From a virus, in IMG/VR virus record IMGVR_UViG_3300042526_000097, positions 25,419 to 89,418 of that record: a stretch of 64,000 nucleotides of DNA. One strand, 5' to 3'. The notes beneath the pieces are model-generated. The model saw only the letters and a program-made list of their open reading frames with translations, searched no databases and was not told where the DNA came from. The stretch's first letter is position 1. The number at the start of each line of letters is the position of its first letter. A program made the translations under genes and the position numbers. Of this stretch, positions 63,446-63,657 are shown piece after piece.

Positions 63446-63657
63446 TAGTCAGGACAGGATTCGAACCTGTATTAAGTTACTCATTAATAGGGACTGTCTA
63501 CGGGTTTTCTTTATACGGAAATTAATCCTTTCGTATGGGCTGTTTGTTAGTCCCATCTTTAAGGTGTTACCACCTCATACCTCTTCGTAATGTATATTAA
63601 TTTCTCACTTATCATTTGGGAGCAACCCATTAGCGTCTACCATTCCGCCACCTGACT
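63446..63657 (-). ncRNA. tRNA-like RNA with the anticodon loop replaced by a ~140-nt structured insert
   Basis: Acceptor AGTCAGG/CCTGACT, D arm GCG-GAATGGTAGA-CGC, T arm ACAGG-TTCGAAT-CCTGT, extended stem GGGTTGCTC/GAGTAACTT. Confidence 0.75.

Follow-up and report, generated by a model that had tools for sequence, protein, structure and literature searches.

A putative non-decoding, tRNA-leucine-shaped RNA gene with an exchangeable middle in a crAss-like lake phage

Our analysis of a 64,000-nucleotide stretch of viral DNA (the window; positions 25,419 to 89,418 of IMG/VR record IMGVR_UViG_3300042526_000097) points to an RNA gene, here called element B, which has the shape of a leucine tRNA and probably does not decode. 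B belongs to a large phage family with a near-invariant tRNA-Leu shell, and we consider it likely that this shell acts as the carrier of an exchangeable cargo and is possibly leucylated. An earlier note on the window had proposed a tRNA-scaffolded functional RNA at this place, and this proposal is now supported by relatives that keep the shell and swap the insert as well as by the lack of any sign of splicing.

Results

A crAss-like phage without decoding tRNAs

The last 127 bases of the 89.4-kb sequence repeat its first 127, so that it probably represents a complete phage genome. This crAss-like lake phage encodes a terminase and a portal of the crAss type. Its other genes include those for helicases, UDG, lysis and a DNA polymerase of family A, and its host is probably a Bacteroidota species. 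DNA near-identical to this phage is present in lake and freshwater metagenomes from many studies; a blastn search with a 621-nt region gave no match in cultured phages. ARAGORN in default mode found neither a tRNA nor a tmRNA in the whole phage genome, and no tRNA-handling enzyme was found among the Pfam matches of 47 ORFs, a set that does not include the largest ones. The features of the region all lie on the minus strand:

63873..63944 (-): tRNA-like A, likewise of the shell family; D and T arms about 20 nt apart, discriminator G (Rfam tRNA 39.2 bits; family model R1 55.4 bits)
63658..63872 (-): conserved structured RNA of about 210 nt between A and B (homologues in eight phage tRNA-array loci)
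63446..63657 (-): whole element B, tRNA-Leu-shaped RNA gene, 212 nt including the discriminator (sequence; both shell halves match the family consensus exactly)
63633..63657 (-): 5' shell half with AGTCAGG, U8 G9 and a D arm of the Leu type, GCGG-AATGGTAG-ACGC (92% match to phage tRNA-Leu; D stem covaries in the family)
63471..63632 (-): cargo of 162 nt replacing the anticodon and variable arms, from T26 to the U48 equivalent (longest of 162 parsed family members)
63561..63576 (-): GNRA hairpin AGGTG-GTAA-CACCT with flanking pairs (in the MFE structure with and without shell constraint)
63454..63470 (-): T arm ACAGG-TTCGAAT-CCTGT (sequence; likeness to the allele L084 starts here, at about 63472)
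63446..63453 (-): acceptor 3' strand CCTGACT and discriminator A73 (63446), followed by C74 (sequence)
63358..63441 (-): compound hairpin closed by AAGUGGAG/CUCCACUU, then U8, terminator-like (fold)

The shell of B

The Leu-type D arm and the perfect acceptor and T arms described in the earlier note proved to be exact on the minus strand. The acceptor stem AGTCAGG/CCTGACT consists of seven Watson-Crick pairs (63657-63651 with 63453-63447), and the D arm spans 63648-63633. The third acceptor pair reads U3:A70, which agrees with the previously noted lack of G3:U70, and CCA is not encoded at the 3' end. The first 26 nt match annotated tRNA-Leu genes of cultured phages at 92%, and the 3' half fits the 22-nt T-arm/acceptor pattern of our family search exactly. 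Since this T-arm/acceptor string is common to more than 160 elements and the 5' half matches phage tRNA-Leu, the shell of B is far beyond chance. Its D loop is the one-U variant, common to 29/131 family members, and the nucleotides of the LeuRS set are all present (A73, U8-A14, A15-U48, G18G19, A20a, and U54, U55, C56 and A58 of the T loop).

A large family with a near-invariant shell

A search of IMG/VR with the 22-nt T-arm/acceptor string, allowing R at one position, detected at least 163 sites in at least 120 stretches, with up to seven sites per stretch among the matches listed. Among these, the complementary 5' acceptor strand lies upstream in 147 of the 163 sites, nearly all of which continue into the same Leu-type D arm. 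IMG/VR yielded at least 144 distinct elements with continuous lengths of 68-181 nt; the middles are about 20-130 nt long among the matches listed, and short members have a tetraloop hairpin instead of an anticodon loop. In 185,579 species genomes we found only 23 matches, all on MAG contigs and about half of them labelled Bacteroidota, and no cultured-phage record holds both shell halves together. A protein match to this phage (E <= 1e-5) was present in only 22/143 shell-bearing stretches, with at most four ORFs each. There is no conserved neighbour protein, the commonest being DUF932 in 15/143 stretches, and this lack of an accompanying protein family fits a dependence on host factors. The family model R1 scored the allele L084 (see below) at 58 bits, close to its value for tRNA-like A, and matched B only in two separate parts (26.8 and 15.3 bits), as the model does not accommodate a middle of this length. 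Motif-string and topic searches retrieved no relevant paper describing the shell family, and the treatment of tRNA-like candidates in a 2023 survey of viral structured RNAs stays general. The family is absent from Rfam, very large and barely studied.

Compensatory changes in the D stem occupy nine cells, compared to 2.5 +/- 1.3 in shuffles, and none of 500 shuffles reached this value. U8 is present in 130/131 members, and the last nucleotide of the middle, the partner of A15, is Y48 in 126/131 (U in 116, C in 10). A73 is found in 120/131 members of the tertiary-core set and in 150/164 of the end-nucleotide set, and the family D loop AAU(U)GGUAG keeps A14, A15, G18G19 and A20a. The D stem and the tertiary-core nucleotides of the shell are under RNA-level selection. 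Next to the acceptor stem, 159/164 elements carry C74 and 131/164 carry U-1; for these tail and leader nucleotides, a mobile unit conserved at the DNA level would be an equally good explanation.

ARAGORN without introns called a tRNA in 33/162 members, compared to a mean of 34 (range 27-42) after shuffling of the cargos. As anticodon arms do not exceed the shuffle level, the shell family does not decode. A helix closing the cargo was considered as a family rule and rejected, since it occurs in 24/139 members and in 21-31 in shuffles. Overall, the family cargos are mildly more structured than shuffles (mean z -0.74), and this mild structure, together with the lack of enrichment for a closing helix, implies that 'structured effector' may be too strong a term for many members. 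Nevertheless, cargos from different contigs reach 84-100% identity in more than 20 pairs in which both 400-nt flanks are unrelated, and some cargo types show compensatory stem changes around conserved loops (L174/L209 versus L212; the L229 type). Judged from these comparisons, the family cargos are not junk.

The cargo of B

An insert of about 140 nt had been described in the earlier note; the insert is present but longer, with about 160 nt between T26 and the T stem. As a whole, this cargo folds better than shuffles (z -2.3, 7/300), and its only robust helix, when folded with the shell constrained, is the GNRA-capped hairpin AGGTG-GTAA-CACCT at 63576-63561, in line with the earlier description of this hairpin. 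Three further stems proposed at the same time are complementary in sequence but not well supported by the fold: the 9-bp extension of the anticodon stem (GGGTTGCTC/GAGTAACTT) has a probability of about 0.3 and is absent from the MFE structure, and the ensemble probabilities of GGGACT/AGTCCC and ATACG/CGTAT are about 0.17 and 0.12-0.21, respectively. The mini-ORF in the insert, already suspected to be due to chance, indeed looks like a chance occurrence, as dinucleotide shuffles yield an ATG ORF of its 23 codons or more in 33% of cases.

The cargo has no Rfam match (E <= 1, positions 60000-64000); the sole match at this threshold in this interval is tRNA-like A with 39.2 bits. Exact IMG/VR patterns for the D arm plus cargo start and for the GNRA hairpin of B gave no match. 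A degenerate pattern of the cargo gave 35 matches, about the number expected by chance, seven of which lie inside a shell and all belong to L229-type cargos. This type is weakly similar to the first ~40 nt of the B cargo (blastn E = 2, not significant alone), and beyond this weak 5' likeness the IMG/VR patterns and blastn detected no homologue. We also considered a role as antisense RNA or as the template of a DGR, and rejected it: within the phage genome the cargo finds nothing better than 11-mer matches, whereas each of 40 shuffles has a stronger best match, and neither sense nor antisense matches exceed chance.

One locus with at least three middles

Over 1971 nt starting at the T arm, the JGI contig L084 shares 96.9% identity with this genome, and its downstream ORF is 98% identical to the copy of this phage. 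L084 carries the same shell at the same place around an unrelated 52-nt middle, which forms a GAAA-capped hairpin and two small hairpins and has no anticodon loop. Upstream of the T arm only the 5' shell half matches this phage, and the shell is preceded by a different gene, with no tRNA-like A and no 210-nt RNA. Moreover, the 359-nt RNA-library contig X20 is 99% identical in the upstream spacer and has 105 letters between the shell halves, and in two contigs from a different study the halves are 52 and 57 letters apart (L084 form). As the middles of L084, X20 and B differ, a single locus has at least three different middles in near-identical phages. Retention of the shell with exchange of the insert, which the earlier note had suggested looking for, is thus seen in L084 and X20 and also among the distinct IMG/VR elements (at least 144). 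The breakpoints of mosaicism between phage genomes lie at the constant shell ends. Of 160 loci with distant homologues of the 82-aa protein encoded downstream, none except L084 has a similar element. A TerL-based synteny search returned two loci, both ending short of the array.

The neighbouring non-coding unit and its possible release

On the minus strand, the order is tRNA-like A, the 210-nt RNA, B as the last gene, and the compound hairpin with U8. A simple terminator scan reported no terminator here, and promoter-like sites occur at chance level. tRNA-like A has no foldable anticodon arm. The 210-nt RNA combines a 5'-3' closing helix with covarying hairpins and has no Rfam family, and in all eight homologous loci it begins right after the 3' end of a tRNA or tRNA-like element and stops 3-4 nt before the next one. 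Since it is bounded by tRNA-like ends, A and B may also serve to cut this RNA out.

RNA-library contigs from three metatranscriptome studies cover positions 63442-63895 and none of 63000-63441, an interval over which a DNA run shows even coverage. Two of them, X24 and X20, hold a shell plus cargo in unspliced form. The B cargo itself (63510-63611) has no cover in three RNA runs or in the DNA run X6, so that these runs are silent on the expression of B. Being contigs and not reads, the RNA-library data give a weak hint that the locus is expressed. In the DNA run X6, most 'joints' correspond to other shell elements or to tRNAs of other organisms.

The precise borders of the 210-nt RNA raise the question whether A and B are mainly a processing signal ('tRNA punctuation'), at which RNase P and 3' enzymes release this RNA, with a functionless cargo inside B. 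That a phage without a decoding tRNA gene nonetheless has two shells flanking the 210-nt RNA exactly speaks for this, as do the tRNA or tRNA-like ends on either side of it in 8/8 homologous loci, the conservation of U-1 and C74 in the family, and the RNA contigs, which cover this spacer best. We nevertheless regard this explanation as unlikely. L084 keeps shell and cargo without A or the 210-nt RNA, and shell arrays with other spacers occur, with up to seven shells among the matches listed. Furthermore, a processing signal needs no D arm, Levitt pair or 160-nt middle, and a functionless cargo is difficult to reconcile with cargo families that are 84-100% conserved across unrelated phages and with the better-than-shuffled folding of the B cargo.

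RNA-level selection against DNA-level exchange

Mosaicism at the shell could also arise if B were a decayed tRNA gene or a recombination module acting at the DNA level, with the shell halves as short homology boxes and an inert RNA. The likeness of L084, which begins at the T arm and upstream comprises only the 5' shell half, fits such a module, and so do identical elements in unrelated flanks, GIY-YIG homing-endonuclease genes near the arrays in 11/143 stretches (11 loci) and the only mild structure of the cargos. Homology boxes would not account for the compensatory D-stem changes or for the conservation of the nucleotides of the tRNA tertiary pairs (U8, A14/A15, G18G19, U48, T loop), and the conservation of A73 and C74 is expected of an RNA handled by tRNA enzymes, not of a homology box. 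Moreover, shell elements are present in RNA libraries, and the phage T5 RNAs 1 and 2, which share this architecture, are annotated as stable RNAs. On balance, we consider an inert module very unlikely.

No sign of splicing

Least probable among the readings weighed here, and in our view hardly tenable, is that B is a class II tRNA-Leu gene with an anticodon-loop intron of about 127 nt, the splicing of which would yield a decoding tRNA-Leu(GAG or CAG). With introns allowed, ARAGORN indeed reports a tRNA-Leu(GAG) of 86 nt that is interrupted behind position 35 by an intron of 127 nt. This model has an anticodon stem ATGGG/CCTAT and a long variable arm, and its isotype agrees with the Leu-type shell; moreover, unexplained inserts have been reported in phage tRNA genes of Lak megaphages (PMC6784885). 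However, when the shell was kept and the insert shuffled, ARAGORN still called an intron-bearing tRNA in 353/400 cases (88%) with random isotypes (Leu in 38), and the intron call on B therefore carries no weight. The proposed anticodon stem has an ensemble probability of about 0. Position 37 of the proposed loop is a U, although a purine is the rule there in tRNAs. In Rfam, 60000-64000 has no match at E <= 1 to any group I, group II or self-cleaving ribozyme family. To our knowledge, the smallest self-splicing group I introns measure about 200 nt, and 127 nt is well below this figure, in line with the earlier remark that the insert looks too small for a typical group I intron.

The relatives of B argue in the same direction. 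The L084 allele has a 52-nt middle without an anticodon arm, anticodon arms in family members are no commoner than chance, and RNA contigs of the variants retain the middle. RNA contigs that skip the middle with no other letters between the shell halves number zero, a count to be read with the B cargo uncovered in three RNA runs and with contigs dropping rare forms. Thus, of the two outcomes which the earlier note had set against its own proposal, splicing to a normal tRNA and random decay of the homologues, we see no sign of splicing, and the 84-100% conservation of cargos together with the selection on D stem and tertiary core contrasts with random decay. If introns are allowed, tRNA finders will wrongly report genes of this kind as tRNA genes with an intron. 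Affiliation with YrlA or another bacterial Y RNA was dismissed, as RF02553 has no match in 60000-64000 and the Pfam families of the 47 phage ORFs, which do not include the largest ORFs, contain no TROVE domain (Ro60).

Discussion

A shell that may engage the host tRNA machinery

Our preferred reading is that of a non-decoding RNA in which the tRNA-Leu shell carries the cargo. In the proposed course of events, a minus-strand transcript would comprise tRNA-like A, the 210-nt RNA and B and would end at the hairpin and U8, and the shell of B would fold into a tRNA elbow and acceptor arm. Host RNase P would cut at the 5' end, where the family conserves U-1, and host tRNA enzymes would trim the 3' end behind the conserved C74 and add the CCA that is not encoded. 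The product would be a stable RNA of about 215 nt. Within it, the cargo (~160 nt with one GNRA hairpin) could act as the effector, for example as a protein- or RNA-binding module in the contest between phage and host or among phages, and the shell would supply processing, stability and perhaps binding of a host factor. Recombination at the constant shell ends could then move cargos and flanking genes between phages.

Giege and Eriani (2023, PMC9976931), who cite Larkin et al. (2002), report that E. coli LeuRS still acts on a tRNALeu without anticodon and variable arms. According to them, this activity depends on A73 and on the tertiary pairs of the D and T loops, among which A15-U48, G18G19 and A20a are essential. 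Because the shell keeps the set that is reported as sufficient, B is probably a LeuRS ligand and may be leucylated; the rules applied are those of E. coli and Aquifex and may not be those of the host. The conserved LeuRS set suggests that the shell can be read as a module for host RNase P, 3' trimming, CCA addition and probably LeuRS.

A more far-reaching version is that the shell is a natural minimal LeuRS substrate and that infected cells leucylate these RNAs irrespective of the cargo, the RNAs acting as charged non-coding effectors or by titration of LeuRS. We put this forward tentatively and consider it a possible but rather doubtful extension of the carrier reading. If the RNAs were leucylated, host machinery for Leu-tRNA, such as LeuRS, EF-Tu, the ribosome or the Leu/Phe-tRNA protein transferase, could be where the cargo is delivered or retained. 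Such RNAs would be charged but non-decoding, would form a new class of phage RNA that evolves in the manner of cassettes, and would provide a function for RNAs of the T5 RNA1/RNA2 type, which have been without one for decades.

Comparison with known RNAs

The closest known RNAs to B are RNA1 and RNA2 of phage T5 (NC_005859, 30501-30644 and 32959-33083), which are annotated as 'tRNA-like stable RNA with unknown functions'. Like B, they are encoded in a phage tRNA region and, by inspection, consist of an acceptor/D/T frame around a middle that is not an anticodon arm. RNA1 combines a D arm of the Leu type (CCGG-AATTGGTAG-ACGG) with a T arm and paired ends, and about 90 nt replace its anticodon arm. 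RNA2 has the T arm of the shell family (GCAGG-TTCGAAT-CCTGT) and a 7-bp acceptor stem, and its middle includes a T-arm-like hairpin, as do several family cargos. The acceptor stems of both RNAs differ from that of the shell family, and their R1 scores are weak (28.4 bits for RNA2, a partial match based on the same T arm, and 9.5 bits for RNA1). Furthermore, T5 has a full set of decoding tRNAs, whereas this phage has none.

Small stable RNAs are also found at the end of the tRNA cluster of phage T4, where the species 1 and species 2 RNAs (rnaC and rnaD) likewise have no assigned function. T4 rnaC ends in a tRNA-like T arm as B does, but both T4 RNAs differ from B by the lack of a Leu-type D arm and by poor acceptor pairing. 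A relationship of rnaC at the sequence level was rejected, as R1 gives it 17.7 bits compared to 17.5 bits for the tRNA-Leu of T4 itself.

In tmRNA, an acceptor and T-arm domain is combined with a large RNA domain in the place of the anticodon arm, a layout similar to that of B. B differs by its full Leu-type D stem, its U3:A70 pair and an ORF at chance level, and neither ARAGORN nor Rfam finds a tmRNA, which bears out the earlier judgement that B is not a tmRNA despite the likeness. Sister elements with middles of 20-52 nt, moreover, cannot encode a tag of the tmRNA type.

The 'enigmatic introns' of Lak megaphages (Devoto et al. 2019, PMC6784885) resemble the situation in B, as these genes were missed by bacterial tRNA finders and contain inserts without an Rfam class; the Lak tRNA genes were rescued by allowing introns (PMC6784885). 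In contrast to B, which has no anticodon arm above chance, removal of the Lak inserts leaves a normal anticodon arm, and insert-free alleles align (PMC6784885). The minimal tRNALeu substrates of E. coli LeuRS (Larkin et al. 2002, as described in PMC9976931) share with the shell the acceptor with A73, the D arm, the T arm and the core of D/T-loop and Levitt pairs. They are laboratory deletions, whereas the missing arms are replaced in B by up to 160 nt of other RNA.

This replacement also has a man-made precedent. B would be the natural counterpart of the engineered 'tRNA scaffold' of Ponchon and Dardel, in which an RNA of interest reportedly takes the place of the anticodon arm and the chimera is said to share the processing and the stability of a tRNA.

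For decades, the annotation of the T4 and T5 tRNA clusters has included small tRNA-like stable RNAs with no assigned function. B presents the T5-type design in a crAss-like lake phage without any decoding tRNA and ties it to hundreds of genes of uncultured phages with a near-invariant Leu-type shell and interchangeable middles. Since this shell keeps the features that LeuRS reportedly requires of a tRNALeu without anticodon and variable arms, the old question of what such RNAs do is now open to direct experiment.

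The shell as a possible breakpoint between phages

The comparison with L084, a phage 96.9% identical to ours, suggests that exchange may occur at the element itself. The two are similar from the element's T arm onwards (window 63472, L084:241); upstream of that arm they match only in the 5′ half of the shell. The gene upstream of the element in L084 has no counterpart in G000, the genome of our phage. Judged from these sequences, a mosaic breakpoint seems to lie at the constant shell. GIY-YIG homing-endonuclease genes lie near shell arrays in 11 loci among the matches listed (L180:4982-5656 and 10 others), and genes with a T5orf172 domain do so in 8 loci among the matches listed (for example L268:2957-3445). 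These genes could drive cassette exchange.

RNA features beside element B

The surroundings of B, the tRNA-Leu-shaped shell with its cargo, hold the following features in the window:
63358-63441 (-): long compound hairpin with AAGUGGAG/CUCCACUU as its closing helix, followed by U8, between B and an 82-aa ORF
63658-63872 (-): conserved structured RNA of about 210 nt, between tRNA-like A and B
63873-63944 (-): tRNA-like A, with a second copy at genome positions 1-71; 55.4 bits with R1, the covariance model of the shell family, and 39.2 bits with the Rfam tRNA model

tRNA-like A is a member of B's shell family. Its D and T arms lie only about 20 nt apart, no anticodon arm could be folded, and its discriminator is a G. 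ARAGORN in default mode reported zero tRNA or tmRNA genes on the whole G000 genome (89,418 bp, with a terminal repeat of 127 bp). The two anticodon-less shells are its only tRNA-like genes.

Homologues of the ~210-nt RNA were found in eight phage tRNA arrays (L220, L173, L225, L179, L246, L174, L211 and L186), each directly adjoining the 3′ end of a tRNA and ending 3-4 nt short of the next tRNA. The RNA has covarying hairpins and a helix, UGAGUA/UACUCA, that closes it by pairing its 5′ with its 3′ side, matched no Rfam family, and is covered by RNA contigs from three metatranscriptome studies. Relative to the window, all four sequencing runs (RNA and DNA) carry one extra T behind position 63796 within this RNA, which is either a true variant or a one-base assembly error.

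The compound hairpin with its U8, just past B, resembles a terminator; a simple terminator scan did not pick it up.

Relatives in other contigs

All 23 shell matches in cellular genomes (L284-L306) lie on MAG contigs, about half of them labelled Bacteroidota (Chitinophagia, Saprospirales, Flavobacterium, Sediminibacterium). These are probably mis-binned phage contigs, which would give a hint of the host range.

The phage tRNA array of L225, which also carries shell elements, contains a near-threshold match to the Rfam family 'freshwater-1' (6709-6771, minus strand; 68.3 bits versus a gathering score of 72). With introns allowed, ARAGORN places a tRNA-Leu(AAG) in each of two related viral contigs (L064:6420-7333 and L065:9199-10112, minus strand), with an insert of 818 nt; these calls are candidates, given the high false-positive rate of the intron mode in a shuffled-insert control, and the insert could be a group I intron.

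Within the shell family, the D loop is enlarged by inserted sequence in L188, L239, L275 and L221. Several cargos (L229, L310, L316, L323, L330, L335, L336) contain a T-arm-like hairpin, for example GGG-TTCGCAT-CCC or CTCG-TTCGATT-CGAG.

Comparison with known systems

The GIY-YIG and T5orf172-domain genes beside the shell arrays have a parallel in the tRNA cluster of phage T4, where segB is likewise located. RNA2 of phage T5 (L343:3460-3584) carries a T-arm-like hairpin in its middle, as do several cargos of the shell family.
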